From an uncultured Verrucomicrobia subdivision 3 bacterium (GTDB lineage: Bacteria; Verrucomicrobiota; Verrucomicrobiia; Limisphaerales; UBA11358): a DNA stretch of 64,000 nucleotides. The notes beneath the pieces are model-generated. The model did no database searches. It had not been told where the DNA came from and worked only from the letters and a program-made list of their open reading frames with translations. The stretch spans positions 30,080-94,079 of the forward strand of contig CAITTG010000049.1 of the NCBI GenBank assembly GCA_903895255.1. Direction: 5' to 3'. Below are positions 7,201 through 25,497 of this stretch, one piece after another; within the stretch, counting starts at the first letter, position 1, and every line of letters begins with the position of its first letter. The position numbers were made by a program, and so were the translations under genes.

Positions 7201-7414
7201 CATCCTGCGCTTGCGCCCCATCATGATGACCGCCCTCGTCGCGGCCCTCGGCCTGCTGCCCGCCGCCCTGGCTACCGGCGTCGGCACCGACACCCAGCGC
7301 CCGTTTGCCCTCGTCATCGTCAGCGGCCTCTTCACCCGCCTCCTCATCAGCATCTTCCTCATGCCTGCCCTCTACACCATCGTCGCCCGCCCCAACGACC
7401 GCCTGGAAGTGTAA
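4289..7414 (+). CDS. CusA/CzcA-family heavy-metal efflux RND permease
   Basis: 1041 aa. The N-terminus NRIVASSLRQRFLVILMTF...LNRLPVDAYPDLSPPIVEIITQWPGHAAEEIE matches the CzcA/CusA pattern, and the layout is the 12-TM RND type. An alternative start at ATG 4337 is possible. Confidence 0.93.
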   Translation: MSAPLTSTGAPPRTASMMNRIVASSLRQRFLVILMTFVLLAAGSRSLNRLPVDAYPDLSPPIVEIITQWPGHAAEEIERLITVPVEVGMNGIPQLATARSISLYGLSDVILTYQHGTDNNFARQEVFNRLSSLTLPSGVTPSVSPLSSPSGLIYRYVLQSPDRSPMELKTFEDWIIEPAYKSLAGVADDSGFGGGTMQYQVLLDPAKIAGVGLSVLQVEAALAANNANAGGGFYSQGGQFYYVRGLGRLETVEDIGNVVLAVHDGTPVLLKDVGRVVIGIAPRLGEFGYEQQDDAVEGVILLRTGDKTQDVLQRVAAKTKELNEKILPKDVKILPFYDRTDLIVLTTQIVERNLLRGMLLVIVILIFFLYDFRAGLIVATTIPLALLFAFVCLDWQHASANLLSIGAIDFGILVDGAVVMVENIFRQIAARKGAPMNVPEIIRAAAAEVDRPLFYAVAVIVAGFLPIYALSGPSGTLFKPMADTMVFALVGSLIVTLTLLPVLCSWFMRNGVRERRNGVFEAIKAVYTQGLDVCLAWPWATTLVSALLLGGSLLLIPRIGAEFMPQLDEGALWVRATMPYTISFDESAKITPQIRAILKSFPEVTTVASELGRPDDGTDSTGFFNVEFYVGLKPYSQWHGAYRKKADLIEAINHKLGSFPGIIFNYTQPAEDAVDEAESGLKSALAVKVFGSDLPTLEQKGKAIKAVLEKVRGIANVTLVKELGQPSLDIKINRAMIARYGVNVADINGLITTAIGGDVATQVVQQEKQFDLVVRLEREYRDNPEEIGNILVPTPGGQQIPLKEFADIRVANGASFIYRQDNSRYIGVQFSVAGRDLAGAVQDAMAQINAAVKLPPGYHLDWGGEYTEYTASRDQMKVILPLTLALIFLLLFALYSNLKFPFITVLGVLLSAPVGGLVALWLTGTPFSVSSGIGFLALFGVSVQTAVVYISYVNELRLQGASLAESIREGAILRLRPIMMTALVAALGLLPAALATGVGTDTQRPFALVIVSGLFTRLLISIFLMPALYTIVARPNDRLEV

Positions 7415-7457
7415 CCAGGGCCAAACTAAAATCGTGGACTCAGGGCTTCCCTTCGTA

Positions 7458-7490
7458 GCGGTGAACGGGCGTTCACCGCCTTCATTATTT
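7458..7490 (+). terminator. hairpin plus T-rich tail after the RND pump
   Basis: GCGGTGAAC-GGGC-GTTCACCGC (9-bp stem) followed by CTTCATTATTTCC, 44 nt after the stop. Confidence 0.55.
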
Positions 7491-7675
7491 CCGCTCCGCA
7501 TCGCAAAAACAGCGCCCGATCATCGGAGCGCCGGCTTCCCGCCGGCTTTGCGCATCCGACCACCCGCACGGACCGATTCCATCCAATAACAACCAACCTG
7601 CTACGTAACGCCGTCCCCGCACCAACCACCGCACATGCCGCGGGCTACCCATGGCAGAACCCCGTCCGGGGCCTG

Positions 7676-7747
7676 CGCCCCCGGAGCGCGGGTCCGTGAC
7701 CCGCAGCGCGTCGCTTCGCTGGCGGGCGTAAAAATTAGCCTGCCACC
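7676..7747. repeat. REP-like element, copy A (17-nt palindrome core at 7688-7704)
   Basis: Core GCGGGTC-CGT-GACCCGC followed by AGCGCGTCGCTTCGCTG...AAAATTAGCCTGCCACC. Same orientation and tail as copy B. Confidence 0.8.
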
Positions 7748-7867
7748 TTTTCGGGCCAGGCGAAAGCTGCCCCTTGCCATGTATACATTTGGTATCAGGA
7801 CGCGCCACCGTTTCAGCCGCGTGTTAAATCCCTGTTCATCTGTGTCTATCCGTGGTTACCCCCCATT

Positions 7868-10351
7868 TCACCGCTGCAACCGATAAAAACTCATCGCCCC
7901 CGTGGTCAGCAGTGAAACCGAATAAACATTATTCGTCAGCACCGGTGCTGGCGCCACTGGGTTCCAGGTTCCAGTCGCTAAATTGGTAGTGGATTCCAGC
8001 GTGAACCCCACCGCCCACGACGGCCACGAAAACGCCAGACTGCCGGCGGCATGCGTCCAGTTCAATGCCACGGGCAGTGCCAGTTGATCGGGGCCAGCCT
8101 GCTCGTTGGCGGCAATCTCATTCGTAGTGAGGAGGCCGTCGTACAGCCGAAGTTCGTTGATGGAACCATTAAGGTAGGGGTCCGCGGCGAACAAGGAGCG
8201 GCCCACGAATGACCATGCGGTGCTGACCGTGTTGAATTTCGGCCACGCGCCCGTGAGCGATTGCTCCAGCACCCCGTTGGTATAAATCGCGGCGGAATTG
8301 TTGGTGGGATCCACCAGGCACACCACGTGTACCTTGCGGCCATCCAGGGTTCCGGGACTGTTCAGGATCGTGGTGCTGCTCGAACTCGACTCCATTTGCT
8401 GCTCCCCGAGGTTATTGTGCGGACTGAAAAAGAAATACTGAGTCCCGGTGGTGCCGGAAATATTGCCAAAATCCACCACCCGTGCCCAGTTGCCGTTCGC
8501 GCCGAACGTGGCCCAAAACTCCAGCGACACCGCCACCGAACCCGAGACCAGGCCGCCCGGAATTCCCATGTAAGTGCCAGTGGTCCCATCCAGACTGAGC
8601 GCGTTGTTGGTCACCACGGCATCTCCATACAGACTGCCATGCGCCATGCCGATGGCATCACGCGGGTTTCCCGTAAAGCTGTAACGGTGGGCCAGGGCGG
8701 GATGCGCGTAGGCCAGGGCCTGGATTTCCGTGGCGCTCAGCGCCCGGCCGAAAACCCGAAACGAACTGATTTCACCTCCGAAATAGGGATCCCCCGCAAA
8801 CTGGCTTTTGCCCAGATTGTTGTTATCCGCCAGCAACTGCCAGGGCCGGATGGTGAGGGCTGAATTGGTGGCGACCGGATACCCGTTCAAGTAGAGCAAA
8901 CCGGTCGTGCCATTGAGGCTGACGGCCACGTGGCACCAGGAATTCGAGGGCAGGGCAAACGGCGCATTAATCTGCTGCTCACCACCGTTGCCGTTGGTGG
9001 TGATGGCAAAGCGCAGGCCGCCCCCGTAGGCCGCGGGTGTGAGAAAGCAGTAGTTGGTGGTGCTCGCGCCCAAATCGAAGATGCGCTGCCAGGGGGCCCC
9101 GCCATTCCATTTCACCCAACCGGCGAAGGTGCTGGCGTTCGCGACCTCCAGCGGCATGGACAGGTAGTTGCTACTACCATCCAACCGCAGCACCCGGCCG
9201 CGGCCGGGCTCGTTGGTAAGCGTGGCGTTGCTTTTCAGGGTGCCATTGTAAAGGCCCAGGTGTTCATGGGCGTCCCGATTCAATGGGTAAAACGCGCTCC
9301 AATCATTGGTGACTTGGGGCCAGCCATCGGACGACCACGTAAGGTAATTCAGTCCCAAGGTGGCGACGCCATTGTTGAGCCCATCATAATAGTGGTAGGT
9401 AAACCAGTTGGTGCCCGCGTAGGTATAGATGCCCGCCTGACCCGGGCCGATGTAGCGGGCTGTGCTCTCGAGCACCATCGTGCCGCCGGCGTTGGTCAGG
9501 TTGATGCCATTCCGGTCAAAGTACGGGCCCTGGACCGTGGGGCTGCGGCCCACCCGGATATTATAGGTGCTGTCCACCCCCGCGCAGCAGCCGCCCCAAT
9601 TTTCAAAGAGGTAGTAATAACCGCCGTGCTGGTACAGGAAGGAAGCCTCCTCGGTGCTGCTAAAAAAATAAGGGCCATTGTTGGCCACCCGGTAAATCGG
9701 CGAGGTGGGCGAAAGGCGTTTGCCCGTCGTCGGATCCAATTGCATGATCAAAATCCCGTCCGAATAAGAGCCAAACGACATCCACACCGTGCCGTTGGTG
9801 TCCTGCAGTATGCTGGGATCAATGCAATTATATGCCGTCAGGTCGGTGGTGGCATTGGTGGCAAAATCCGGGTTCGACTGGATAATCTTGCCTTGATCCG
9901 TCCAGACCGGCGCGGTGAGTGAAGGCGAGGTGACCAGCCCGATGGCGGAATTAATGGTGCCCCATTCTGAGCAGCAATAATAGAGGTAGTATTTGCCATT
10001 CATGTAAACGACGTCGGGCGCCCAGAAGTAGCCGGTGAAACCGGGCACCGCATTGGTGGTCCACCCTGGCGGGCCGCCGGGAAACACCGGGCTGACGGCG
10101 GTCCAGTTGCGCAGGTCCGTGGAGGTCAGTCCGTCGATCCCCTGGCCATCGCCATAAACAAAAAAAGTGCTGCCCTGCTGGACGAGCGGGGAGGGGTCAT
10201 GAATGCCGGTGTTGCCCAGTACTGGTAGCTGGGCCTCGCTGGACCTTGGGATGAGCCACGCAAACGCCGCCAGCAAGAGAGTCACTGGCAAGGATCCCCG
10301 CCGCCAAGCGCAACCGGTTGGCCGCGATGATTTGCTCGTAAATAAGCTCAT
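7868..10351 (-). CDS. secreted GH43 (arabinanase-like) glycoside hydrolase with two LamG/ConA-like domains and a C-terminal FYRL module
   Basis: Signal peptide, then GH43 motifs (IHDPSPL, YFWAPDVVYMNGKYYLYY, DPSILQDTNGTVWMSFGSY). Two LamG-type blocks follow (LRLDGSSNYLSMP...WQRIFDLG; LSLDGTTGTYMGIP...WARVVDFG). It ends in ...ESTTNLATGTWNPV...MSFYRLQR. Confidence 0.88.
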   Translation of the reverse strand: MSLFTSKSSRPTGCAWRRGSLPVTLLLAAFAWLIPRSSEAQLPVLGNTGIHDPSPLVQQGSTFFVYGDGQGIDGLTSTDLRNWTAVSPVFPGGPPGWTTNAVPGFTGYFWAPDVVYMNGKYYLYYCCSEWGTINSAIGLVTSPSLTAPVWTDQGKIIQSNPDFATNATTDLTAYNCIDPSILQDTNGTVWMSFGSYSDGILIMQLDPTTGKRLSPTSPIYRVANNGPYFFSSTEEASFLYQHGGYYYLFENWGGCCAGVDSTYNIRVGRSPTVQGPYFDRNGINLTNAGGTMVLESTARYIGPGQAGIYTYAGTNWFTYHYYDGLNNGVATLGLNYLTWSSDGWPQVTNDWSAFYPLNRDAHEHLGLYNGTLKSNATLTNEPGRGRVLRLDGSSNYLSMPLEVANASTFAGWVKWNGGAPWQRIFDLGASTTNYCFLTPAAYGGGLRFAITTNGNGGEQQINAPFALPSNSWCHVAVSLNGTTGLLYLNGYPVATNSALTIRPWQLLADNNNLGKSQFAGDPYFGGEISSFRVFGRALSATEIQALAYAHPALAHRYSFTGNPRDAIGMAHGSLYGDAVVTNNALSLDGTTGTYMGIPGGLVSGSVAVSLEFWATFGANGNWARVVDFGNISGTTGTQYFFFSPHNNLGEQQMESSSSSTTILNSPGTLDGRKVHVVCLVDPTNNSAAIYTNGVLEQSLTGAWPKFNTVSTAWSFVGRSLFAADPYLNGSINELRLYDGLLTTNEIAANEQAGPDQLALPVALNWTHAAGSLAFSWPSWAVGFTLESTTNLATGTWNPVAPAPVLTNNVYSVSLLTTGAMSFYRLQR

Positions 10352-10524
10352 GATTTTCTGCCGCGATCAGGCGGGGAATATGGCGCTGGGCAAAACCTGA
10401 TGGTGCTTCGGACGCAATGGGCAAATCATACTAAACAATGCGCCAAATCGTTCCCGGTTCAAGTAATTTTTAGAGGACAACACTGATCTGGGCGATCGCA
10501 ACCATCCCCAACCACCGGCCGCCT

Positions 10525-10594
10525 CTCCCGGCGCGCGGGTCCGTGACCCGCAGCATGTCGCTTTGCTGACTGTCGTCAAAATTAACCTGCCACC
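10525..10594. repeat. REP-like element, copy B (palindrome core at 10535-10551)
   Basis: GCGGGTCCGTGACCCGC followed by AGCATGTCGCTTTGCTG...AAAATTAACCTGCCACC. A degenerate partial copy (GACCCGCAGCAC...TTAACCTGCCATCT) lies at about 10988-11030. Confidence 0.8.
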
Positions 10595-11087
10595 TCATCG
10601 AGCCCGGGAAATCCAGCCTCTCGCCACCAAACGCTTGGCCATTCCCTGAGCCTCACTGCCCGTCCGCTTTCCGCGCCCAGCCACCTTCAAGGTGCGGTGC
10701 CACCTAAAATTAAAGTGTTGCCCGGCCTCAACTCTGCGTTCTTTGCGACTCTGCGCGCGCCATTTTAGGTGCCTTGGCGGGGGCATCCGTCTCCGCCGGC
10801 CGCCCCTTAACGATCCGCGTGCTGCCAGCTTTCATGCGTTCCAAACCCAAGTTAAGCACCCGTCCCAACGGAAATTTTCGCGCCGAGTCGCGGCGGCCGC
10901 AGAGAAAATCAAACCTCATTTCAAACACTAAGTTAACCTGACGATTCCTTTTAATATTTAGGTTAATGCTTATGGGCCACAGACCCGCAGCACATTGCCT
11001 GGCTGATCAAGAACCTTCTTAACCTGCCATCTCACCCGGTCAAGGGTCACCGCCCAGCCTCATGCTTCCGCGGTTGGAAACTCGGCT

Positions 11088-12071
11088 TCATTCTGGTGGC
11101 CGCCGCAGTCGGTGAAAAACAAACTCCGCCGGCTTTTGGGCCTCCGGGTCCAGGGTCACCGTGAAATAACCGCCATCATCCAGCAACTCAATGCCCGCCA
11201 GCGCCGGGCAGAGCTTCACCCGGAACGGCCGCCACGCGCGGGATTGGCTTAAAGCCGAGGACATCTTTTTGACGGTATGGCCCATAAAGCTGATGGGCGG
11301 CACCCAGGCGAGCAGCCGGCTTTTCCACAGAATGAGATCCGAATGCAGATGCCCAATGATGGTGTGCTCGATTTGCGGCAGCCGCCGGCGCACCGACTCC
11401 TCCTCATGGAGAAAGGGCAGGGCGGTGGGGTCATGACAAAAAAGCAGCACTCGCTGTTGCGGTTGCAGCGCATCAAAAGCCGCGCGAATTTCCGCCAGGT
11501 GTTCCGCGCGCAACCGCTGCCATTCCGGCCATTCCCCGGGCTGCGTGTCCGACTGGCTGGCCGGCAGCGCCAGTAGCGGCGACGTCACCCCCATCAGCAC
11601 ATAATTGCCCAGCGTCACCTGCCAGAACCGTTTGAGTCCCAGTTGTTCGGTGCAGGCCTGCCAGCTCGCCAAATACATTCCACCCTGCCCGCTGAACATG
11701 GCCACCTTGCCCAGTTCATGATCGCCAAAAACAAAATGCGCCTTGTCCCCGTAACGCGCCGCGATTTTGGCCAGGCACTCCTGCGCGCTCGCCAGCGAGG
11801 CCGGATCGCTTAGTCCGATGAAAGCGGAATTCCCGGAGTGATCCCCGTCCACCACCACGGCATCCGCCGGTCCCGCCTCCGCCAGAAACCGGTCGAGGAA
11901 CGCCGCCCGTCCCATCGGGTAACGCATCCAGATATGACGGCGGTAGCGGCCCGCCAGCCAGCGCATGAATGGATGCTGGATCGCCTGCAGTTCATAATCA
12001 TTCCCCCGGGCGCGCTCCGCGGCTCCTGTATAATGAATATCGCTAAGAATGATCAGTTTCATGGGCTTCAT
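11088..12071 (-). CDS. metallophosphoesterase (calcineurin-like)
   Basis: MKLIILSDIHY, DGDH, GDHE and GHLH motifs in the canonical order. Confidence 0.8.
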   Translation of the reverse strand: MKPMKLIILSDIHYTGAAERARGNDYELQAIQHPFMRWLAGRYRRHIWMRYPMGRAAFLDRFLAEAGPADAVVVDGDHSGNSAFIGLSDPASLASAQECLAKIAARYGDKAHFVFGDHELGKVAMFSGQGGMYLASWQACTEQLGLKRFWQVTLGNYVLMGVTSPLLALPASQSDTQPGEWPEWQRLRAEHLAEIRAAFDALQPQQRVLLFCHDPTALPFLHEEESVRRRLPQIEHTIIGHLHSDLILWKSRLLAWVPPISFMGHTVKKMSSALSQSRAWRPFRVKLCPALAGIELLDDGGYFTVTLDPEAQKPAEFVFHRLRRPPE

Positions 12072-12080
12072 GGGTGCGAC

Positions 12081-12719
12081 TCAGTTGAGCGCCGCCGCGC
12101 GGCCCCGGGGCAGCCGGCCCAGGTTGAAAATGATGAACCCGTGCAAAAACTGGCCCAGTTCCGCCGTCTGCGCCGGCGTGAGTTTGAGTCGCTGGCCGGT
12201 GGCCCAGTCGCCCTCGGTCAGCACGGCGGCCGCCTTTTGGGTGCCCGGCAGCAGCCGCGTCTCCTCCCAGTCGGGCTGCAAGCCGGTCTCCGCCAGGATT
12301 TTCAATTCAAACGCCAGGATCAATTGCGCCGTGGGTTCCACTGCGCACAGGCAGTCGAGCAGCCCGCGCAGCAGCTCATAAATTTCCGGCAGGGGCGTCT
12401 CCGTTTCGGTGGCGTCCTCCACCAGCGCCGTGGCGTACGCGGCCTGTTGCAACCGCCGCAGATCCTGGCGGATCGCCGCCCGGGTCTCCCGCAAATTAAT
12501 CTCCCGCAGCGTGTGCAACTCCGACCGCCGGCTCCGCGCAAAGGAAAAATCCGCCTGGTAAAACAAATCCAGCTTGCCTTGAAACGGCGATTTGTGCCGC
12601 CGCGCCCCCTTCGCCACCGTCGCCAGCCGACCCCATTCCGGCGTCAGCCAATGGACGATCAAACTCGTCTCCGTCAGGGGCCGGGTGCGCAGAATCAAAC
12701 CGCTGCCGCTCTCAATCAT
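12081..12719 (-). CDS. recO: DNA repair protein RecO
   Basis: GLILRTRPLTETSLIVHWLTPEWGRLATVAKGARR... is the RecO OB-fold N-terminus. ATG 12719 overlaps the upstream stop (ATGATTGA). The track start at 12758 is probably too long. Confidence 0.85.
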   Translation of the reverse strand: MIESGSGLILRTRPLTETSLIVHWLTPEWGRLATVAKGARRHKSPFQGKLDLFYQADFSFARSRRSELHTLREINLRETRAAIRQDLRRLQQAAYATALVEDATETETPLPEIYELLRGLLDCLCAVEPTAQLILAFELKILAETGLQPDWEETRLLPGTQKAAAVLTEGDWATGQRLKLTPAQTAELGQFLHGFIIFNLGRLPRGRAAALN

Positions 12720-13365
12720 GTGGTTTCGCATCCGGGGCGATCGCCCCCAGGCTGACAATGTATTTCACCCCGTCCGCCACCGACATGTCCAGCCGCGTGA
12801 CCTGGTCCGCCGGCACCAGCACCATGAAGCCCGAGGTCGGGTTCGGTGTCGTGGGAATGAACACGCAAACCAGCTCTTCCTCCGTTTTAAAAGCCTTGCC
12901 GTGCTGCGCCTCGCTCGTGAGAAACCCTATGGAATACATGCCCGCCCGCGGAAACTCCACGCGCACCACCGTCTTGAAAGAATTTTTGCTGCCTGAGGAA
13001 AACGCCTCGTTCACCTGCTTGATCGCCCCGTAAACTTTGTTGAACAACGGAATGGCCAGCATCAGGGCTTCCGACCACTCGATGAGCTTGCGTCCAAAAT
13101 AATTCCGGGCCAGCCGCCCCAGCGCACTCGTGAGCACCACCGCCAGCGCCAGGGCCACGAGGCTCCAATACCACAGCACGTCGCCCTTGCCCCCGTCCTG
13201 ATGGGTGATGTCCTTGGGCAGAAAAAACAGCAGCAGGTCGGTCACGCTCGAGACCGTGCCAAACACCCATTTGATCACGGCAAACGAAATCACCGCCGGC
13301 AGGACGATGAAAAACCCGGTCAGGAAATTGCCCCGCCAGCGCGCGGGCAGACTTTTTTTTGTCAT
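12712..13365 (-). CDS. DUF502 family membrane protein
   Basis: N-terminus GNFLTGFFIVLPAVISFAVIKWVF, 2-3 TM helices, and the ...FIPTTPNPTSGF motif characteristic of DUF502. Confidence 0.8.
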   Translation of the reverse strand: MTKKSLPARWRGNFLTGFFIVLPAVISFAVIKWVFGTVSSVTDLLLFFLPKDITHQDGGKGDVLWYWSLVALALAVVLTSALGRLARNYFGRKLIEWSEALMLAIPLFNKVYGAIKQVNEAFSSGSKNSFKTVVRVEFPRAGMYSIGFLTSEAQHGKAFKTEEELVCVFIPTTPNPTSGFMVLVPADQVTRLDMSVADGVKYIVSLGAIAPDAKPHD

Positions 13366-13384
13366 ATGCCAGTTTAGAACCCCC

Positions 13385-13831
13385 TCACAGCTTGCTCAAG
13401 GCAAAGCGGCGGCTAATCGTCCGCACCCAGCGCCCCTCCACCTGCTTCATTTTGCGGCGCGGCCCGGGCGTCAAATCGTCATGGCCGAGCAAATGCAGCA
13501 GCCCGTGGATCACATACCGCACCAGCTCCGACCGCCACTCCGTCCCAAATTCCCGGGCCTGCGCCACCGCCACCGCCGGGCAAATAAATAATTCCCCTTG
13601 CAACGGTGCGTCCGCGCCCGCCTCCCGATAGTCAAAGGTGATGACATCCGTCGGCCCCTCATGCTGCAAAAACCTCTGGTTCACCTTCGCCATCTGCGCC
13701 GGGCTCACCAGGTTGATTTCCAGGCTGGCCGCCGGTCCCGCCAGTTCCGCCAGCAGCACCGTGGTGATTTCCCGCAGCACACGGATCTTGATCTTGTGGG
13801 TGCGCTGCCGGTTGGCAATGGTCAGGTTCAT
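13385..13831 (-). CDS. ybeY: rRNA maturation endoribonuclease YbeY
   Basis: 148 aa with the zinc motif HGLLHLLGHDD. It sits directly downstream of a PhoH-like gene, a conserved pairing. Confidence 0.92.
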   Translation of the reverse strand: MNLTIANRQRTHKIKIRVLREITTVLLAELAGPAASLEINLVSPAQMAKVNQRFLQHEGPTDVITFDYREAGADAPLQGELFICPAVAVAQAREFGTEWRSELVRYVIHGLLHLLGHDDLTPGPRRKMKQVEGRWVRTISRRFALSKL

Positions 13832-13841
13832 GCCTCAGGCC

Positions 13842-14804
13842 TCAGGCCTTTTGCAGGCCGCGATGATCCTCGTACGCCTGGATGATGCGTTGCACCAGCG
13901 GATGCCGGACGACGTCGCGCTTCGAAAATTCCACAATCGCGATGCCCTCCGTGTTCCGCAACGCGCGGTGCGCCTCCACCAGTCCGGAATTTTTGTGCGC
14001 GGGCAGATCCACCTGGGTTTCGTCGCCCGTGATGACCGCTTTGGAACCATGGCCCAACCGGGTGAGAAACATCAGCATCTGCTCCGTCGTCGAATTCTGC
14101 GCCTCGTCCAGAATGATGAACGCCCCGTTCAACGTGCGCCCGCGCATGTACGCCAGCGGGGCGATCTCAATCGACCCGCGCTCCGTGTGTTTCTGCAATT
14201 CCTCCGCCGGCAGCATGTCATGCAGCGCGTCGTGCAACGGCCGCAGGTACGGCGTGATCTTTTCGTACAAGTCCCCCGGCAAAAATCCCAGCGCCTCGCC
14301 CGCCTCCACCGCCGGCCGCGTCAGGATGATCCGCGACACCGTGCCCTCGCGCATCGCCGAGAGCGCCAGCGCCACCGCCAGATAGGTCTTGCCCGTCCCC
14401 GCCGGCCCAATGCCAAACGTGATGTCGTGCTTGCGAATGGCCTCCACGTATTTTTTCTGCCCCACCGTCTTGGCCACCACCCCGGGTTTGCGGTCATGGG
14501 TTTGCACCCGGTCGCTCACCAGGCTTTTCAACGCCTCGCCGCCCTCGTGCTTCACCACACTGAGGGCGTGCGTGAACTCGCGGTTCTTCACCGGCGACCC
14601 GCTCTTCAACAAACTCTCCAGCGAGGCAAACAACTGCTTGGCCCGCTCCACGCCTTCCGCCGTGCCGTCCAGTTTGATCCACCCCTCGCGCGCGGTGGCC
14701 TTCACGCCCAGCTCGGCCTCGAGCGATTGCAAATTGCGCGACTCATGGTTGAAGAGTTGCTGCGCAAAGCGCGCGTTTTCGTAATGGAGCGTGAGGGTGG
14801 GCAT
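13842..14804 (-). CDS. phoH: PhoH-like ATPase (YbeZ)
   Basis: Walker A GPAGTGKTYLAV and Walker B IILDEAQN, 320 aa, adjacent to ybeY. Confidence 0.92.
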   Translation of the reverse strand: MPTLTLHYENARFAQQLFNHESRNLQSLEAELGVKATAREGWIKLDGTAEGVERAKQLFASLESLLKSGSPVKNREFTHALSVVKHEGGEALKSLVSDRVQTHDRKPGVVAKTVGQKKYVEAIRKHDITFGIGPAGTGKTYLAVALALSAMREGTVSRIILTRPAVEAGEALGFLPGDLYEKITPYLRPLHDALHDMLPAEELQKHTERGSIEIAPLAYMRGRTLNGAFIILDEAQNSTTEQMLMFLTRLGHGSKAVITGDETQVDLPAHKNSGLVEAHRALRNTEGIAIVEFSKRDVVRHPLVQRIIQAYEDHRGLQKA

Positions 14805-14836
14805 GGGGTCAATGGGCTGGGGGTTTCACGATCCGG

Positions 14837-16171
14837 TCACAATCCCAGTTTCCTAAACCGGCTGTTCACCTGTTTGAAATGGAAATCCAGCGAGCACAGT
14901 TTTTCCAGCTCGCCCGTTTTGAAATGTTTCGCCACTTCCGGGTCCGCCTTGAGAACCTGGAGGAAATCCGCGTCGTCGCGACCGGCGTGCTTGACCTCCC
15001 ACGTCTTCATCGCGGCGGTTTGCACCAGCGCGTACGCCGCCTCGCGGGTCAGCCCCTTGCGAATCAACGCCAGCAACACCGTCTGGCTGTTCCACATCCC
15101 GAGCGAAAGGCCCAGGTTGCGCTTCATGTTTTCCGGATACACTTTCAAGCCGTCCATCATCCGCGTGAGCAGGCCAAACATGTAATCCAGCAAGGTGCAG
15201 GAATCGGGAAAGATAATCCGCTCCACGCTGCTGTGACTGATGTCCCGCTCATGCCAGAGCGCGACGTTCTCCAGCGAAGCCACGGCGTTGCCGCGCAGGA
15301 CACGGGCCAGGCCCGTCAGCCGCTCCCACGTGATCGGATTGCGCTTGTGCGGCATCGCGCTGCTGCCTTTTTGACCAACGGTAAATGGCTCCTCCGCCTC
15401 CAGCACCTCGGTGCGCTGCAAATGCCGGAACTCCACCGCCCAGCGTTCGATGCTCGCGCCGACCAGGGCCAGCACCAATTGAAATTCCGCGTGAATATCC
15501 CGCTGCACCACCTGCGTGGCAATCGGCGCGGCCTGGATGCCCAGCTTTTTACACACGTACGTTTCCACACGCGGCGACAAATGCGCGCTCGTGCCCACGG
15601 CCCCGGAAATTTTGCCGACGGCCACGATGTCGCGAATGCGCGTCAACCGCTCCAGCGCGCGGCCAAATTCATCATACATCAGCGCCAGCTTCAGCCCGAA
15701 CGTTGTCGGCTCGGCCTGGATGCCGTGGCTGCGGCCGATGCACGGGGTGAACTTGTGCTCTTTGGCCCGCCTGGCGATGGCGACGCGCGCCGTCTTTACA
15801 TCCGCGATCAGCAAATCCGCGCTCTGCATCATTTGCACCGCGTAACAGGTGTCGCCCACGTCACTGCTCGTCAGGCCGAAATGGAACCAGCGGCTCGCCT
15901 GGTCATTGATCTTTTCCGCCACGGCCGTGGTGAAGCCGATCACATCATGATTCAGCACTTTTTCCAATTCCCGCTGGCGGGCGACCAAACCGGGCAGGTC
16001 CGCCATCCACGCCTCGCAACCGGCTTTGATTTTGGCAAAGTCCCGGGCGGGCACCACGCCCTCCTTCACGAGCGCCTCGCTGGCGAGCAGTTCAATCTGC
16101 AGCCAGATGCGCAATTTATTTTCGTCCGTCCAAATGGCCCGCATTTCGGGGCGCGAATAACGCTGAATCAT
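14837..16171 (-). CDS. purB: adenylosuccinate lyase
   Basis: [19 protein letters not shown]..., the fumarate-lyase signature [11 protein letters not shown], and the C-terminal ADSL domain. ATG 16171 is preferred over the 40-codon-longer track start. Confidence 0.93.
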
Positions 16172-16476
16172 AGGCGCGAGCTTAGAATTTAAACCGCCGG
16201 TCGTCGAGCAGGTTCGGTTTGGGGAAACCCGCCCGAAGCGGTGGCCGGGGGCTGCGAAAGTGCGCGAATCTTGAAGATGTGGGGAAATCACGGGGTTAAA
16301 AGGTTAAGGCGTTATTTGGTTAAATTGTTAAATATCAGAATGCCAGCGAGTTGTGCGTGGTGGCGGTTCCGCCGGGCCGGACGCGGGGTGGCGGGCAGGG
16401 CTTTACCTGCCGTTCCGCCGGGCGAACGGCCGCAATTTGAAGGTGTTGCCACGTTCATCGCGTAAAATTTAGCAGG

Positions 16477-16505
16477 GGACCCTGGACATCCGCTGTCCAG
16501 GGTCC
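16477..16505. terminator. perfect 12-bp stem hairpin flanked by an A/T run (terminator or insulator-like)
   Basis: GGACCCTGGACA-TCCGC-TGTCCAGGGTCC followed by AAAATTTTTAAAATAATTTT. It lies between the divergent purB and hicB. Confidence 0.4.
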
Positions 16506-16598
16506 AAAATTTTTAAAATAATTTTGGGGGAATAAAATGGCGGCGCAAAGGCCAGCGGACGCCTCGACAAACCGGCACGAATAGGGTAACTTCCCACC

Positions 16599-16805
16599 GT
16601 GAACATTCCATTGAGCGCTGAAATTCATAAAGAGGGCGAGTGGTTCGTGGCGTTCTGTCCGGAAATGCCCGAGGCCAATGGCCAGGGACGCACCCAGGAG
16701 GAATGCCTGGAAAATCTCAAGCAGGCGATCCTGCTGCTTCTGGAGGACCGCCGGGCGGATGCCCGCGAAAAGAACGACCAGGGGGTGGTACTCGAACTTA
16801 CGTGA
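16599..16805 (+). CDS. hicB: HicB-family antitoxin (UPF0150-type, no DNA-binding extension)
   Basis: 68 aa. ...EGEWFVAFCPEMPEANGQGRTQEECLENLKQAILLLLE matches the HicB N-domain pattern (dG.y.A.cPelPG....G.T.eEAl.n.keAi.l.le). GTG start. Confidence 0.75.
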   Translation: MNIPLSAEIHKEGEWFVAFCPEMPEANGQGRTQEECLENLKQAILLLLEDRRADAREKNDQGVVLELT

Positions 16806-16855
16806 GGTGCCGATTGTTGATTCAGCATCTGCCATTTTTGGCGGCCCATGAATAG
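16802..16855 (+). pseudogene. possible truncated hicA toxin remnant (17 codons)
   Basis: The GTG overlaps the hicB stop (GTGA coupling). VRCRLLIQHLPFLAAHE* resembles the HicA N-terminus (K.R.LI..LE..G) but terminates early. Confidence 0.3.
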
Positions 16856-16999
16856 TAAAACTCAAGATCGCGGGCCAAGTTTGCCAACTAACTAAACCAA
16901 ACCCAATTTAAATAAAAACAGGTAACTGTGCGGAGCCGAACCCTTTATGGCATGATCGCATGCTCTTCAATTAATCTTTGCTGAAAAGTAACATGAAAA

Positions 17000-17473
17000 T
17001 CACCTTTGCCCCATAATCGCACCCGCAAGGTTTGAATAGCCAGAATGTACACTTTCATTTGAACAATCAGCAATTAAATCATCCAGATCCCGCTCAGTAA
17101 ATTTGGCCAGAATCGTTAACACTTTTGGTAAGGCCTTCATACGTGTCTTTGGTGGTGTTCCCGCCTGGTTATCCCTGAAGAACTTCGCTACAAGTCGGAG
17201 TTCGCCAAGAAAGCGTTTGTTCACGAATTCTCTTGCCAAAGTTGCCATGCGTTCGCGCTTTGACGGAGTCAACTCCATTTTGGCTAAAAGCTGCTCGGGA
17301 GTTGGGATGCTTTTGAGTGACTTTGAAACTTTAATTTGTGCGGCAGCTTCCAACTGACTTATGATGCTTGATTCAGAAACCTCATTTATGTGGGCAAGAC
17401 TTTGCAATACCCGTGTCCGACCATGCTCCAACACGAGAAGTTTAAGATGTAAATCTAATAAATCTTTTGACAT
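17000..17473 (-). CDS. hypothetical all-helical protein, partner of the ParA-like ATPase
   Basis: AT-richer ORF starting 7 nt after the ParA-like stop, with GGAG 12 nt upstream of ATG 17473. No motif recognised. Confidence 0.55.
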   Translation of the reverse strand: MSKDLLDLHLKLLVLEHGRTRVLQSLAHINEVSESSIISQLEAAAQIKVSKSLKSIPTPEQLLAKMELTPSKRERMATLAREFVNKRFLGELRLVAKFFRDNQAGTPPKTRMKALPKVLTILAKFTERDLDDLIADCSNESVHSGYSNLAGAIMGQR

Positions 17474-17480
17474 GGTAAAG

Positions 17481-18386
17481 CTATACTCCAACTTTCTGAA
17501 AAAGTTCAGCGCTAAAACCTACAATTGCTTGCTTGATTCCTGACCGGGCGTAGCTGGTGTGTTCTATGGCAGAAGCTTCCCGTGCTGACTTTGGGATCGC
17601 TTTCGAGTGTGGAACCTCATTTGCAAATATTGGCCATCCATGTTCTTTTGCTAGTGTTCTCACTTCACGTACTGACAATTTTGCCTCCGGCCCTGGTTGG
17701 TAATCACCATGGTTGAAGACAACTCCAGCCATATTAATAACATGATCATCATTTTCACGGCGAAATGTTTCCAATGACCGGGCCAATAATGGAAGTCCTA
17801 TCGCCGCAAGGAATTCTGGCTTTACAGGAACAACTACATATCCACTTGCAAAATAAGCAATGTCAGTCAGTACCGATTCCGTCGGTGCACAATCAATTAT
17901 TACCAAGTCATAATCCGAGGCAACTTTAGCGAGGGCCTTCGCGAGTTTGCGTTCCTTTCCCGCTGGATTGCGAAGAACCCGTGACAGTTCCAATCGACAT
18001 GGCAAAAGGTGGAGGCACAAATTTTTCGACCATACATTTTTGATAATAACATCTTGAATTGTGACAGGTTGAGGCCCCGGGGCACCAAATGAAGCTGGTT
18101 GGTAATCCTCCAACAATTGCACAACCGTCGGCTTTGAGGCTTTCAAAAGCTTTACATATTCCGAGGGTCCTAAAAGGGCTTGGCTGAGATTAGATTGTGG
18201 GTCTAGGTCAATTGCAAGGACCCTTTTCTCGTTCCATGCTGCGTAAATGGCCGCTTGCATAGCAAGACTAGTTTTGCCGACCCCACCCTTCATATTAATA
18301 AAACTTACGTTTACAGACACATTTATCCTTTCATTTGGCGAGCGTGGCAAATTATATCGGCGCTGTGTCGAAACTGGCATCGCCAA
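17481..18386 (-). CDS. ParA/Soj/MinD-family P-loop ATPase
   Basis: Deviant Walker A INMKGGVGKTS, LAIDLDPQSNLSQ and IIDCAP motifs, 301 aa. Visibly AT-richer than its neighbours. Confidence 0.85.
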   Translation of the reverse strand: MAMPVSTQRRYNLPRSPNERINVSVNVSFINMKGGVGKTSLAMQAAIYAAWNEKRVLAIDLDPQSNLSQALLGPSEYVKLLKASKPTVVQLLEDYQPASFGAPGPQPVTIQDVIIKNVWSKNLCLHLLPCRLELSRVLRNPAGKERKLAKALAKVASDYDLVIIDCAPTESVLTDIAYFASGYVVVPVKPEFLAAIGLPLLARSLETFRRENDDHVINMAGVVFNHGDYQPGPEAKLSVREVRTLAKEHGWPIFANEVPHSKAIPKSAREASAIEHTSYARSGIKQAIVGFSAELFQKVGV

Positions 18387-18454
18387 CGCTTGCGGGTGCC
18401 AATAGTAATTTTAATTCAAGCGCTTGTCGAGTTTTTGTTTTTTGCTCATTGCCC

Positions 18455-21225: not shown

Positions 21226-24200
21226 TTGTTTATGCAACCCCATCACAAGCTAATGGCCGCGTGCCTGTCCGCCCTGGCCCTGACCCTGAGTCTCCGAACG
21301 GCCCCGGCTGCCACCATCACCAATGCCGACACGTCTGCCACCCTCAACCTGGGCACCGCCTGGGTGGGCGGCGTGGTCCCGGGCTCTGCCAATGTCGTCG
21401 TGTGGGACAATAACGTGCAAGTAAACCTCTCCAAGACCCTCGGCGCCAGTGCCGCTTGGGCGGGCATTCAAGAACTGAATCCCGGTGGACCGGTCGTCAT
21501 CGGCGCGGATGGCAGCACCCTCACGCTGGGGGCTTCGGGCATTGACCTGAGCCAGGCCACGACTGGCCTCACGCTGAACAACCTGGTCTCCCTGGGGGCC
21601 GCGCAAACCTGGAATGTCGCCGGTGGCCAGACGCTGACCCTGGGCGGGGTGGTTTCCGGCTCCAGCCCGCTGACTTTGAATAGTGGCGGCACCACCACGG
21701 GCACGATCATTTTAAATGGGGCGGATACTTACACCGGCGGCACTCTGATCAACAGCGGCATTGTGGTGCCGGGCGTGGCCGCCAGCTTTGGCACGGCCGG
21801 GGTCACCAATAATACCGGCACCATTCTCCTATCCACCCTGGCTTCGGGCGGCATCATCGCCAATACGTTCACCATCAAAGGGAATACGTTGCTGGACCTG
21901 AACAATCGCGGTGTTTCCCAGGTGCTGGACGGTGCCTTCTCCGGCACCGGGACCATCTATGTCACCAATTTGACTTCCAGTGCCGCCACGCTGACGCTTG
22001 GCGGGAATGGCAATGGTGGCGGCAGCTTTAATGCCTTCACCGGCTCGCTCATCGTGGTTTCCAATGCCTCCGGCACGGCCAGCGCGGGCACCATCCGGTT
22101 CAACAACGGTGGCGGCAGTCCCAACCTGGGCAACGCCGGGATGATTCTGGACCTGGGGAATGGCAGTGTCCATTTTACCGAAAAGAACAGCGGGCAGACC
22201 ACCACGTTTGGGGCGCTCTACGGCGGCAACAACACCCAGCTCGCGCAGCCGGAGAATTACGTCATCGGCGCGTTGAACTTGAACACGCTGTTCGCGGGCA
22301 CCATTACCGGCGCCGCCTCGTCCCTCACCAAAAACGGCACCGGCACCCTGACGCTTACCGGCAATAATGCCAACACCGGCACCACCACCGTCAACGCGGG
22401 CGCCCTCCAGATCGGTGATGGCGTCACCATCGGCCAGGGTGCCCTGGGCACCGGGGCGATCACCATTAATGCCAATGGCACGCTGATCTATAACAAACCG
22501 GACGCATTCACCGTGAACAACAACATCAGCGGCGCCGGGGCGCTTATCCAGCTGAATGCCAGCACCTTCACCTACGGTGGCACCGACTCGGCCTCCGGCA
22601 CCTTGACCGTCAGCGGGGGCACGCTGGCCCTGGGTTCCTCCGGCGCGATCAATTCCCCGGTGGCGCTGGCCAGCGGCACAACCTACGACGTTTCCGCCAA
22701 CACCGCGTTCACCCTCACCTCCAGCCTGTCCGGTTCGGGCACGGTGAACGGGTTGCTGACCACTGCGGGTGGCACCCTCAATCCCGGCGGCACCGCCGCG
22801 GCGGGAACGCTGACCTTCGCCAGCGGGTTGAACGAAAACGGGAATGTGAACAACCAGTTCGAACTCTCCTCGCCCACGGGCACTAACGACCTCATCAATA
22901 TCACCGGCGATCTGACACTCACCGGCACCAACAACATCCTGCTGGGCCACTTCGGCGGCGGCAATATTCCGAATGGCACCTATCCGCTCGTCAATTTCAG
23001 CGGCAATTTTAATGGCAACCTCAGCCAGCTCGCCGTGACGGTGGCTGGCGTCAAGGGCACTCTGAACCTGCTCTCTCATCAGCTCACCGTCACCATCAGC
23101 CCCAATATTCGTGGTTCCCTGCCGCTCACCTGGGTGGGCGATGGCGCGGCCAATGACTGGGACCTCGTCAGCAGCAACTGGGTCAACGGCGCCACTCATT
23201 ACAACTTTCTGGCGGGCGACAGTGCCATCTTTAACAACACCGGTCTGCCGAATTCCAACGTCACCGTGGTGACCCTGGTGGCCCCGGCCTCGGTGCTGTT
23301 CAACGGCACCGGCAATTATGTGCTCGCCGGCAACTACGGCGTGGCGGATTCGTCCACCCCCTCCTCCCTGACCCTGACCAATTCCGGGACGCTGGCCATT
23401 TATGCCACCAATACTTACACCGGGCCGACGGTGGTCGGTGGCGGCACGCTGGCGGTCTATAATCTGGCCAATGGCGGTTCGCCCAGCGCCATCGGCGCGG
23501 CCTTGAGCAATCCCACCAACCTCGTGTTCTACGGCTCCACGCTGGCTTATGATGGCCCCTCTGCCGCCACGGATCGTGGCGCGACCCTGCTGGGCACGGG
23601 TGCCACCTTCGACATCACGAACGGGGTGGACCTGACCGAAAATGGCACCTTGACGGGGCCGGGCGCCCTCACGGTCGTGGACACCGGCACGCTCACCTTC
23701 AGTGGGGCGAACACCTACACCGGGGGCACCGTGGTCAGCAATGCCACCCTCGCCGCCGCCACCCAGTTGGCGAATGTTTCCGCGTTCGGTCCCACCAACA
23801 GCCCCATCACCCTGCTGGGCGGCACCCTGATTTTGCAGAACAGCACGCATGATGACGGCGCCACCTTCGTTTACTCGTTTTTCAATCCCCTCATCGTTCC
23901 GGCCGGGCAAACCGGCTACTTGAATGTGTTTCAGCGCGGCGATGAAAATGGCGCTTTAACGGGTGGGGGTGTCCTGAACATCAGTTCCCTGGGCGCCCGG
24001 GCCGGTTTTGCCGGCAACTGGTCCGCTTTTACCGGCACCCTCAATATCACGGGCACGTTCCGCATCGCCAATACCTACGGGTATACCAATGCGGTGATCT
24101 ATCTGAACACGGGCGCGGATTTGGATGGCGGTTCCTCCGGCGGCGCTTACTCCTCCAACCCCACGTTTAATATCGGGGAGCTGGACGGGGTGGGCACGGT

Positions 24201-25161
24201 GGGCGCGACCAGCAAGCCCACGCCTTATCCCATCTGGCAGGTGGGCTGGTTGAACACCACCAGCGTTTTTGCCGGGACGATTCAGGATGCCGCCGGCGGC
24301 CAGTCCTCCATCAGCAAGGTCGGCACCGGCACCTGGTACTTGTCGGGCGTGAACACTTACTCGGGCACCACCACCATCAATGCCGGGGTGCTGGCCCTGA
24401 CGAACAACGTCAATACCGGCGCGGATGGCTCCATTGCCAACAGCACCAATATTTTCATCAACACTGGCGCGGCGCTGGATCTCTCCGGCACGCTCAATGA
24501 CAGTGACACGTTCTTCCTCGGGGCCAGCCAGGTGCTCAGCGGTTATGGCACCCTGCGCGGCCTGCTGGACACCACCTCCGGCGGCACGGTCACGGGCGGC
24601 GGCGGACTCGCCGGCGGCGTGGGCGTCCTGACCGTCACGAACAGCATCAATCTCGGTGGCGTGGCCTGGCTGAAACTAAACCGCGCCAGCAGCCCGAACA
24701 GCGACCGCCTGGTCTCCTCCACCGCCGGCCTCATCAATTATGGCGGCACGCTGCTGCTGACCAACGTTGGCCCGCGTCTGCAGGTGGGCGACAGCTTTAC
24801 CCTGTTTGGCGCCCGGATGCTCACCGGCTCCTTTAGCTCGGTGGTGCTGCCTAATTATTACACCTTTAACACCAGCCAGCTTGCGGTCAGCGGCCGGGTC
24901 AGTGTCACCGGCGTGTCCCCGGCGCCGGCCATCACCAGTGTGGACTACAGCCAGCTCGCCAATGGCACGCTCACCCTCCACTCCACCGGCGGCGTGGCCA
25001 ACGGCGCGGTCACGGTGCTCGCCACCACCAACCTCGCCCTCCCGCTGGCCAGTTGGACGACGGCGGCCACCGGCAACTTTGATGCCAGCGGGAATTTAAG
25101 CCAGCCGGTCACCGTGGACCCCGCGCTGCCGCAGCAGTATTTCCTCCTGCAATCCTATTAA
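21226..25161 (+). CDS. giant secreted autotransporter-associated beta-strand repeat (PATR) protein 1
   Basis: Signal peptide, then many ~30-aa GxGTLTLxGxNTYTGxTxVxxGxL repeats. There is no C-terminal beta-barrel. It ends in ...TTNLALPLASWTTAATGNFDASGN...QQYFLLQSY. Confidence 0.9.
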   Translation: MFMQPHHKLMAACLSALALTLSLRTAPAATITNADTSATLNLGTAWVGGVVPGSANVVVWDNNVQVNLSKTLGASAAWAGIQELNPGGPVVIGADGSTLTLGASGIDLSQATTGLTLNNLVSLGAAQTWNVAGGQTLTLGGVVSGSSPLTLNSGGTTTGTIILNGADTYTGGTLINSGIVVPGVAASFGTAGVTNNTGTILLSTLASGGIIANTFTIKGNTLLDLNNRGVSQVLDGAFSGTGTIYVTNLTSSAATLTLGGNGNGGGSFNAFTGSLIVVSNASGTASAGTIRFNNGGGSPNLGNAGMILDLGNGSVHFTEKNSGQTTTFGALYGGNNTQLAQPENYVIGALNLNTLFAGTITGAASSLTKNGTGTLTLTGNNANTGTTTVNAGALQIGDGVTIGQGALGTGAITINANGTLIYNKPDAFTVNNNISGAGALIQLNASTFTYGGTDSASGTLTVSGGTLALGSSGAINSPVALASGTTYDVSANTAFTLTSSLSGSGTVNGLLTTAGGTLNPGGTAAAGTLTFASGLNENGNVNNQFELSSPTGTNDLINITGDLTLTGTNNILLGHFGGGNIPNGTYPLVNFSGNFNGNLSQLAVTVAGVKGTLNLLSHQLTVTISPNIRGSLPLTWVGDGAANDWDLVSSNWVNGATHYNFLAGDSAIFNNTGLPNSNVTVVTLVAPASVLFNGTGNYVLAGNYGVADSSTPSSLTLTNSGTLAIYATNTYTGPTVVGGGTLAVYNLANGGSPSAIGAALSNPTNLVFYGSTLAYDGPSAATDRGATLLGTGATFDITNGVDLTENGTLTGPGALTVVDTGTLTFSGANTYTGGTVVSNATLAAATQLANVSAFGPTNSPITLLGGTLILQNSTHDDGATFVYSFFNPLIVPAGQTGYLNVFQRGDENGALTGGGVLNISSLGARAGFAGNWSAFTGTLNITGTFRIANTYGYTNAVIYLNTGADLDGGSSGGAYSSNPTFNIGELDGVGTVGATSKPTPYPIWQVGWLNTTSVFAGTIQDAAGGQSSISKVGTGTWYLSGVNTYSGTTTINAGVLALTNNVNTGADGSIANSTNIFINTGAALDLSGTLNDSDTFFLGASQVLSGYGTLRGLLDTTSGGTVTGGGGLAGGVGVLTVTNSINLGGVAWLKLNRASSPNSDRLVSSTAGLINYGGTLLLTNVGPRLQVGDSFTLFGARMLTGSFSSVVLPNYYTFNTSQLAVSGRVSVTGVSPAPAITSVDYSQLANGTLTLHSTGGVANGAVTVLATTNLALPLASWTTAATGNFDASGNLSQPVTVDPALPQQYFLLQSY

Positions 25162-25218
25162 CCCGGCGGCGGCGGGTGCCGGCCGGATGCCCGGTCATTT
25201 GGGGTGATGGGAAAACGA

Positions 25219-25279
25219 GGCCCCGGGTTTTTTATGCGCGGAAAATATAGCTGCGCGGAAAAATCCGGGGCCGGTTTTT
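25219..25279 (+). terminator. long hairpin plus T-run downstream of PATR-1
   Basis: GGCCCCGGGTTTTTT ... AAAAATCCGGGGCC followed by GGTTTTTCC. Conserved with the PATR-2 3' flank. Confidence 0.45.
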
Positions 25280-25296
25280 CCGCTGGGTGACCGAGG

Positions 25297-25497
25297 CTAA
25301 GCCGGAACTATTCATTTCAACCGCAGGTGAACGCGGATGAACGCAGATAAAACCATGGGGTAGGCAAGGGTTTGACCCGATATTGATCGAGAACTATTTG
25401 GTGCGTCATTTTTTCTCGCTTTCCGCCTTTCCCCATCTGCGTGAATCTGCGTGAATCTGCGGTTAATGTCCTTTTCAACTGAATTGTTCCGGCTAAG
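25297..25497. repeat. 201-bp MITE-like inverted-repeat element, copy 3
   Basis: Same 201-bp length and termini (CTAAGCCGGAAC...CCGGCTAAG). Its core is nearly identical to copy 2. Confidence 0.85.

Follow-up and report, generated by a model that had tools for sequence, protein, structure and literature searches.

The window (the whole stretch of 64 kb that was analysed) carries a GH43-LamG gene on the minus strand at 7868-10351. The gene encodes a protein of 827 aa with a GH43 catalytic domain and two Laminin_G_3 domains. It is solitary, and its nearest homologues belong to an ECF-kinase-Big2/LamG-GH43-GH51 operon. The best non-self homologue of GH43-LamG is at most 70-78% identical; relatives of the adjacent metallophosphoesterase show 94, 85 and 82% identity. 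In no relative examined does GH43 lie beside the metallophosphoesterase operon; the contigs of the relatives at 94% and 85% end before the site, and more distant relatives have unrelated neighbours at the locus. Contigs that encode AcrB, GH43 or the metallophosphoesterase in exactly this form all come from the same strain (99.98-100% identical), and GH43 is present in all of them. The first-pass annotation described the codon style of the gene as unlike that of its neighbours, which is not borne out: its GC3 (0.75) is intermediate between those of the neighbours (0.83 and 0.72), and in synonymous-codon distance from the remainder of the window (0.073) it ranks fourth-lowest among 42 ORFs. GH43-LamG deviates in GC1/GC2, that is, in amino-acid composition, as do other secreted beta-rich proteins of the window.

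Both sides of this gene are occupied by members of a repeat family, of which the window contains five copies, all on the plus strand and all intergenic according to the family HMM and ORF positions. Three copies are of a long form, namely, A (7675-7803; nhmmer E=4.8e-29), B (10524-10643; nhmmer E=1.5e-27) and E (10961-11086; family HMM E=3.3e-23). Copies C (43531-43562, core 43538-43559) and D (43732-43761, core 43740-43761, 21/22 bases) consist of the REP hairpin only. In copy A the REP hairpin core (7686-7707) is perfect; a spacer containing TTAGCCTGCCACC follows, and the right arm is eroded. Read along the GH43 strand, this copy comes after the stop of the gene (7868) and before a terminator-like hairpin (7533-7510), and is thus probably transcribed as part of the GH43 3' UTR. 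Copy B, with a perfect core at 10533-10554, is antisense to GH43 and lies ~175 bp upstream of its start. In copy E the hairpin is decayed (GGGCCACAGACCC at 10970-10991), and its spacer, TTAACCTGCCATCTCACCCGGTCAAGGGTC, is near-identical to the family consensus from bog metagenomes; the stop codon of the metallophosphoesterase gene is 2 nt past its end. Copies C and D share one intergenic region, with D 202 nt after C: C comes 68 nt after a small membrane-protein ORF, and D is upstream of a pilM-like gene. We also considered C and D as a second subfamily with a common tail; their alignment is no better than those of shuffles (z = 0.7). GC skew is negative throughout the stretch with the copies.

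Copies A and B share the 22-mer GCGCGGGTCCGTGACCCGCAGC, found on the plus strand at 7686 and 10533 (0 expected from shuffles), and the tail AAAATTARCCTGCCACC. The core is preceded by CTGCGCCCCCGGA in copy A and by CGCCTCTCCCGGC in copy B, and the respective tail sides are GCGTCGCTTCGCTGGC and ATGTCGCTTTGCTGAC. An ungapped alignment of 7670-7779 with 10517-10626 has 78% identity, confirming the earlier description of direct repeats in the same orientation on either side of GH43, with a conserved tail in both. The distances from the gene given there, ~120 and ~175 bp, are likewise correct, since the ORF spans 7868-10351, and the degenerate third copy placed at ~10988-11030 corresponds to copy E. 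Over the 137-nt element, A and B are 66% identical, the longest perfect run being 22 nt. A resembles B hardly more than either resembles copies from a different species. Even so, no known copy is nearer to either of them than the other one is (tail alignment z = 23.8), which leaves room for a local process in their origin.

The conserved unit of the family is a REP of 25-26 nt, (C)GGAGCGCGG(G/C)TC-YGT-GA(C/G)CCGCAGC. It forms a hairpin with a 7-bp stem and a 3-nt loop. Across 18 variants, 90.5% of the stem cells are paired, versus 30-46% when the partners are slid. Pair 10-18 is C-G in eight variants and G-C in eight, a compensatory change, and elsewhere in the stem one G-C is replaced by A-U. 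The stem occurs in two variants, GGGTC and GGCTC, which pair with each other as heterodimers. The unpaired tetranucleotide on the 5' side is GGAG; in the window, copies B, C and D have GGCG or GGCT instead. Conservation of A and B is concentrated in this unit: the cores are the same at 22/22 bases, whereas the flanks of the 110-nt block agree at only 64/88. At the flank rate, a 22/22 match is expected with a probability of 0.727^22, or ~1e-3. The core stayed perfect while the remainder of each copy decayed, so the hairpin is under constraint in its present location.

Other signals were sought in the copies. RNAalifold found beyond the REP hairpin only a weak CCGG closing helix, with an unfavourable covariation term, and folds of the individual window elements are no better than those of shuffles. 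The whole window has no Rfam match at gathering thresholds; at permissive E-values, 7400-11100 yields three chance-level matches, none on the repeats. An intrinsic terminator was rejected given that no T-run is present, the REP core being followed by AGCGCG or AGCATG. Hairpins at 7458-7479 (plus strand) and 7533-7510 (minus strand) are flagged by the terminator scan, and neither contains the REP core. A promoter in the spacer was also rejected: the reverse strand of the family consensus reads TTGACC-N16-TAATGG, with a poor -10 element, and the promoter scan flagged nothing in copies A, B and E.

The family extends well beyond the window. The exact 21-mer is present in about 10 Verrucomicrobiota MAGs, where it forms the left arm of inverted doublets. 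In relatives, two inverted REPs lie 18-90 nt apart (50-85 nt start to start in nine MAG loci), and a Mu-like viral contig of 37 kb carries three tight heterodimer doublets. Species with proteins at 60-85% identity have the identical REP, and the spacers vary. The doublets of relatives fold as long hairpins (z = -4.8 to -9.5), a fold that window copies A and B lack (z = -1.3 and 0.0, respectively), their right arm being eroded. All copies in the window stand singly, in direct orientation to one another, and the partner arm has decayed, unlike the usual REPIN/BIME layout. The REP arms of the doublets in relatives resemble the terminal inverted repeats of MITEs; no flanking duplication is seen by eye. 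A subfamily of ~130 nt, composed of a left REP, a conserved spacer (TTAACCTGCCACCTCA...) and an eroded right REP, is common to the window lineage and a bog relative. At least five separate contigs from a single bog metagenome carry this long form; the bog copies are intergenic, with flanking ORFs that are convergent, divergent or in tandem. The window's copies A, B and E belong to this subfamily as old members in decay, and lie in the two long gaps that flank the solitary GH43 gene. The term REP-like used in the first-pass annotation is therefore apt: the element is a compensated short hairpin, extragenic, dispersed in many Verrucomicrobiota and arranged as inverted doublets in relatives. The hairpin stem and loop sequence does not occur in the literature searched.

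The right-hand neighbourhood has a history of its own. The purB-PhoH-YbeY-DUF502-RecO-metallophosphoesterase block (11100-16245, ~5 kb) reads as inverted in the window lineage, and one end of the inversion lies 13 nt away from copy E. The metallophosphoesterase gene has had its 3' tail severed; the tail and the GTTAA-rich region downstream of it are now at 16238-16360 on the plus strand. The inversion junctions have the short sequence GCGGYGGCC in common, and the family HMM detects no REP copy in the window at the far breakpoint. GH43 is a lone gene at a rearrangement-prone junction.

We consider it likely that the element represents a REP/REPIN-type extragenic palindromic family of Limisphaerales/Pedosphaera-like Verrucomicrobiota, and that the bracketing of GH43 is a by-product, the gene not having been delivered by the repeats. 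By analogy with REPINs, the copies would have been spread by a RAYT-like HUH/Y1 transposase whose substrates are single-stranded hairpins. Repeats would then have accumulated in the long, permissive gaps at the rearrangement-prone junction, GH43 becoming bracketed incidentally rather than carried in by them. Several observations count against this interpretation: the exact 21-mer occurs just once or twice per representative genome, the screened sequence yielded no RAYT or Y1 transposase, the window copies are direct singlets, the 5' tag differs from the published ones, the three long copies cluster around GH43, and A and B are closest to each other. The bracketing as such is no more than coincidence would give: when copies are placed randomly in intergenic regions by length, some gene is bracketed in 15% (three independent sites) to 38% (five copies) of cases at the observed density. 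Moreover, an ECF sigma factor gene (L017) and a Mu Gp36-like gene (L045) are bracketed likewise.

The first-pass annotation interpreted the gene and its repeats as a possible accessory cassette, gained or lost by recombination. On this reading GH43 would have entered, or could leave, through recombination between two element copies, for instance by A-B deletion or excision, or by Campbell-type integration of a circle on which GH43 is accompanied by one copy. Deletion predicts the junction CTGCGCCCCCGGA + GCGCGGGTCCGTGACCCGCAGC + ATGTCGCTTTGCTGAC (A-upstream, core, B-tail), and a circle or tandem predicts CGCCTCTCCCGGC + GCGCGGGTCCGTGACCCGCAGC + GCGTCGCTTCGCTGGC (B-upstream, core, A-tail). Such a cassette is compatible with the direct orientation of A and B around one gene and their mutual closeness, with the solitary state of GH43 outside the operon of its homologues and its lower identity to them than that of the metallophosphoesterase to its relatives, and with the clustering at GH43 of the three long copies, whose occurrence within two adjacent intergenic regions has P ~0.016 for a statistic picked post hoc. 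Furthermore, Logan contig L002 runs precisely from core to core (7687-10554). Logan assemblies use k = 31. The overlap between the two ends of L002 is 21 nt, not the k-1 expected for a circle, and the ends fit breaks at a multi-copy repeat. Several other results also speak against a cassette. With 22 nt uninterrupted and 66-78% overall identity, A and B are a poor substrate for homologous recombination, and their divergence is about equal to that from copies of other species. Codon usage of GH43 is typical, unrelated genes are bracketed in the same way, and the right-hand neighbourhood arose by inversion, not insertion. Comparison of the locus for presence or absence of the gene, which the annotation had proposed, reveals no variation, GH43 being present in 5/5 assemblies, although all are of one strain. 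We therefore regard the cassette as unlikely and the earlier proposal as unsupported. A different route to a mobile gene, in which the direct REP pair acts as IS200/IS605-type ends and a RAYT-like Y1 transposase peels out and re-inserts the DNA between them, appears very unlikely. If it were true, REP pairs would be vehicles moving ordinary genes in the genome, such as GH43 and the ECF sigma factor gene of L017. Both the L002 contig and the location of GH43 away from the context of its homologues would fit this reading but do not demonstrate it.

There is a small but real chance that the hairpin is a host cis-element that lost its mobility and is under selection for a host function, for instance as a 3'-UTR stabiliser, an RNase barrier, a termination or processing signal, or a protein-binding site in DNA. 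A perfect core in copies with decayed flanks, REP identity across species with much more divergent proteins, the compensatory changes in the stem and the probable transcription of copy A would all be expected of such an element. Its orientation to neighbouring genes is, however, inconsistent (convergent, divergent and tandem), and copies are also found within a phage region. The lack of a T-run after the hairpin, the RNAalifold result and the absence of an Rfam match point in the same direction. An integron-like array, with the repeats as attC-type sites and GH43 as the gene cassette, is suggested by direct repeats of similar length (~70-130 nt) around one ORF, and we consider it extremely improbable. 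The repeats have no end-to-end attC fold, only the internal 7-bp hairpin, and no GTTRRRY/RYYYAAC core sites at their boundaries (on the reverse strand, A has GCTAATT and B has GTTAATT). In addition, the 200-440 nt that separate C from D and B from E contain no ORF, the unit in relatives is an inverted doublet, and no integrase is found among the 18 window ORFs scanned against Pfam.

Under the REP/REPIN interpretation, which we favour, the bracketing of GH43 is most likely incidental and reveals no new gene-moving mechanism; nothing shows that the repeats moved the gene. The analysis adds a REP/REPIN-type family, undescribed within the searchable literature, for Limisphaerales, an abundant group of uncultured freshwater and peat Verrucomicrobiota. 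A hairpin that is intact in decayed copies and identical across species bears on whether REPs persist via host function or via continued transposition. In practical terms, the repeat breaks short-read assemblies, as in L002, and flags plastic junctions in these MAGs.

Among known systems, integron attC cassettes are similar only in having direct repeats around a single ORF, and differ in fold, core sites, integrase and the presence of adjacent repeats without an ORF between them. The ends of IS200/IS605 elements are closer in that two same-strand hairpins bracket DNA, all window copies sharing one orientation; the cargo here is GH43-LamG only, with no tnpA/tnpB between A and B. REPs were already described in Verrucomicrobia, as the GTAG-tagged families of Opitutus terrae (Di Nocera et al. 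2013, PMC3733652). The tag of the present family is GGAG, rather than the GTAG or CGTC of the tagged superfamilies or the variants GYAG, GYRG, GTRG, GTMG and GTGG (PMC3733652). In other respects the Opitutus families are alike, belonging to the same phylum, having a stem of 6-9 bp with an adjoining unpaired 5' tetranucleotide, frequently forming dimers with spacers of 20-100 bp and including some copies in or between unusual genes (PMC3733652). REP/REPIN systems with their RAYTs, such as the REPINs of Pseudomonas and the REP/BIME elements of E. coli, differ from the window copies in layout, since the latter are direct singlets with a decayed partner, and in host, here an uncultured Limisphaerales. 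They also differ in that no RAYT was found: a phmmer search with IS200 TnpA, an approximate query of low sensitivity, gave no match in the window and the collected loci (about 0.32-0.37 Mb, excluding L044-L047). The likeness to these systems is nevertheless broad. Both have a GC-rich imperfect extragenic palindrome with a compensated stem, and in relatives of the window, inverted doublets separated by a spacer form long hairpins. The GGGTC/GGCTC heterodimers parallel the Y and Z REPs of BIMEs, and in both cases the REP is conserved across related species with variable spacers.

The 22-mer GCGCGGGTCCGTGACCCGCAGC holds the REP (short extragenic palindrome) hairpin sequence and is referred to below as the core. 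The window contains four matches to it, at 7686, 10533, 43538 and 43740 (the last at 21/22 bases), all on the + strand; shuffled sequences gave none. Family profile search extends these matches to three long-form copies, A (7675-7803), B (10524-10643) and E (10961-11086), and two hairpin-only copies, C (43531-43562) and D (43732-43761), all on the + strand; no further copies were found by the profile over the whole window. The first-pass annotation had placed direct copies on both sides of the GH43-LamG gene (GH43; 7868-10351, minus strand), and they are indeed there, A and B enclosing it. All five copies are intergenic and share one orientation within a stretch of uniformly negative GC skew, although with only three independent loci this shared orientation carries little weight. 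Copy A is probably transcribed within the GH43 3' UTR, since it lies between the GH43 stop codon and a terminator-like hairpin at 7533-7510.

The exact 21-mer core, scanned against one genome per species, gave 14 matches. Ten loci are in eight MAGs named Verrucomicrobiota, Limisphaerales or Pedosphaera. An eleventh is in a MAG binned as Bifidobacteriaceae, and this contig may be mis-binned because the doublet described below is present there too. At nine of the loci the core forms the left arm in an inverted doublet with the layout CGGAGCGCGGGTCCGTGACCCGCAGC - spacer - GCTGCGG(C/G)TCACAGA(G/C)CCGCGCTCCG. The doublets form long single-strand hairpins (z = -4.8 to -9.5); copies A and B have no such long fold (z = -1.3 and 0.0). 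Pairing in the 7-bp stem reaches 90.5% across 18 different arm variants, versus 30-46% for slid partners; a stem pair alternates between C-G and G-C, 8 to 8, and at one stem pair G-C changes to A-U. RNAalifold found no conserved structure apart from the REP hairpin, and no Rfam family matches the element. Scanning metagenomes with a pattern that combines the core and the tail motif of the first-pass annotation revealed, in one bog metagenome, a ~130-nt family on five or more different contigs, which also carry a relative of the neighbouring metallophosphoesterase (85% identity). Its members run from a left REP through a conserved spacer (...TTAACCTGCCACCTCACCCGGTCAAGGGTC...) to an eroded right REP, a build that identifies the 'tail' in the window as the spacer of a REPIN-like unit (REPIN, inverted REP doublet) with a decayed right arm. 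The family also populates viral or prophage DNA, since a Mu-like phage region of IMG/VR contig 3300009137_000103 contains three tight REP heterodimers with spacers of 18-23 nt (2878-2950 and 3408-3475 of contig piece L045, and 8263-8330 of piece L047), each composed of a GGCTC-type and a GGGTC-type arm.

Copies A and B are narrowly the nearest known copies of each other (tail alignment z = 23.8). They are 66% identical over 137 aligned nt, as are A and the bog copy L017a (66%), and 78% identical in the best 110-nt block (ungapped, 7670-7779 versus 10517-10626). No exact match between A and B is longer than the 22-nt core. In the flanks of the 110-nt block 64/88 positions match, against 22/22 in the core, and the probability of such a perfect core under uniform decay is about 1e-3. 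Thus, the hairpin is constrained in place. Copy E shows the opposite, with a decayed hairpin and a nearly intact spacer segment. The label 'REP-like' was well chosen: the element is an extragenic palindrome, dispersed and with its hairpin under selection, that is present as inverted doublets in relatives and reduced by decay to singlets in the window. By analogy with REPINs, the copies would be spread by a RAYT-like Y1 transposase; an approximate IS200 TnpA query over ~0.32 Mb of the window and fetched loci found no gene for such an enzyme.

The bracketing of GH43 had been read as the possible trace of a cassette gained or lost by recombination between the repeats. The three long copies are indeed clustered around GH43 (P about 0.016, in a test picked after the data were seen). 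However, bracketing of this kind is common. When copies were distributed over intergenic regions according to region length, at least one gene ended up bracketed in 15% of the trials for three independent sites and in 38% for five copies. Other loci provide two independent cases. At the bog relative locus L017, direct long-form copies (115-244 and 1901-2026) tightly bracket an opposite-strand gene for a 527-aa ECF sigma factor fusion in the same geometry as around GH43, and in L045 a Mu Gp36-like gene lies between two doublets. The orientation of copies relative to neighbouring genes is inconsistent. Moreover, A and B share only 22 identical bases, and the codon style of GH43, thought to be unlike that of its neighbours, proved ordinary: GC3 is 0.75 versus 0.83 and 0.72, and its synonymous-codon profile (distance 0.073) ranks with the most typical of the window. 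GH43 differs in GC1/GC2, that is, in amino-acid composition, as do the large secreted proteins with repeats encoded at 21-35 kb; genuinely atypical composition is found at 16.5-18.4 kb. A repeat-mediated GH43 cassette is therefore unsupported and improbable. The short-read Logan contig L002 (ERR4193260) extends exactly from one core to the other (7687-10554), so that the 21-mer is found at both of its ends, which overlap by 21 nt. Logan assemblies use k = 31, and this overlap is too short for a circular path at that k; the ends most simply fit assembly breaks at a multi-copy repeat.

The GH43 product carries two Laminin_G_3 domains after its GH43 catalytic domain, and its best non-self homologues share 70% identity with it over the full length and no more than 78% within the catalytic domain. 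In two of three contexts examined, the homologue belongs to an operon of ECF sigma, kinase, Big2/LamG, GH43 and GH51 genes; in the third it adjoins an OMP decarboxylase gene. The window gene is thus a lone copy outside the usual context, consistent with a gene that is accessory or has been relocated. All contigs encoding the exact AcrB, GH43 or metallophosphoesterase are from the same strain (99.98-100% identity) and have the same arrangement. PhoH-YbeY-DUF502-RecO-metallophosphoesterase is kept in relatives with a 75-94% identical metallophosphoesterase, and the gene content that follows is different in each (e.g., P-II and an ammonium transporter, glycogen synthase and seryl-tRNA synthetase, or an AAA_33 protein); none of the relatives compared has GH43 or AcrB there.

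In the two relatives with 94% and 85% identical metallophosphoesterases, this protein ends in ...RLRRQSGKVQET and a GTTAA-rich stretch follows. In the window homology is lost right after RLRR and the C-terminus is PPE, the new end PPE-stop replacing QSGKVQET-stop. The coding tail that the gene lacks is found, with the GTTAA stretch, at 16238-16360, upstream of purB and on the strand opposite to the gene body, and GCGGYGGCC is present at both junctions (11088-11107 and 16238-16360). The purB-PhoH-YbeY-DUF502-RecO-metallophosphoesterase block (about 11100-16245) appears inverted relative to both relatives; the simplest reading is a ~5.15-kb inversion in this lineage after its split from the 94% relative. 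Copy E lies 13 nt from the left breakpoint; the family profile over the window found no REP copy at the other. Such an event makes the position of GH43, B and E next to the metallophosphoesterase operon recent, and a product of inversion rather than of cassette insertion between AcrB and the operon. The GTTAA stretch includes five GGTTAA/GTTAA motifs ~8 nt apart (16294-16335), unique in the window and kept in the two closest relatives. Given the ParA-like gene beside them, these motifs could form an array that binds a protein or is centromere-like. The ParA-like gene, a ParA/AAA_31 ATPase (17481-18386), is found in a low-GC island (16500-18400; GC 0.44-0.49, GC3 0.38-0.42) together with a weak UPF0150/HicB-like ORF (16599-16805) and an unannotated 163-aa ORF; no other part of the first 20 kb is clearly atypical in composition.

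The window contains other repeats. A 202-nt repeat (829-1030 versus 25297-25498, 96% identity; third copy at 464-665, 75%) is found at distant intergenic sites upstream of unrelated genes, namely, the gene for a giant PATR-repeat protein and a small hypothetical gene that precedes the efflux operon. At 50074-50254 a 30-nt unit (TTAACTTGTGATTTACCAATACTGGAATCCC), repeated in tandem about six times, separates a 749-aa TPR-containing ORF from a 239-aa ORF with only a C-terminal Secretin domain; the frames differ, and the two may represent a split or interrupted pilQ-like gene. Most direct-repeat families come from internal repeats common to three very large ORFs (1311, 1292 and 1629 aa) at 21226-34560, the first of which, when scanned, was found to hold PATR (passenger-associated transport repeat) units.

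Readings of the element as an integron, IS200/IS605, terminator or structured RNA fail on the features tested. Its hairpin sequence is in no paper of the searchable literature. The family works like REP/REPIN elements, of which it is probably a member, and REPs of Verrucomicrobia have already been described in Opitutus terrae (PMC3733652). The tag here is GGAG, in place of the GTAG or CGTC of the published superfamilies.
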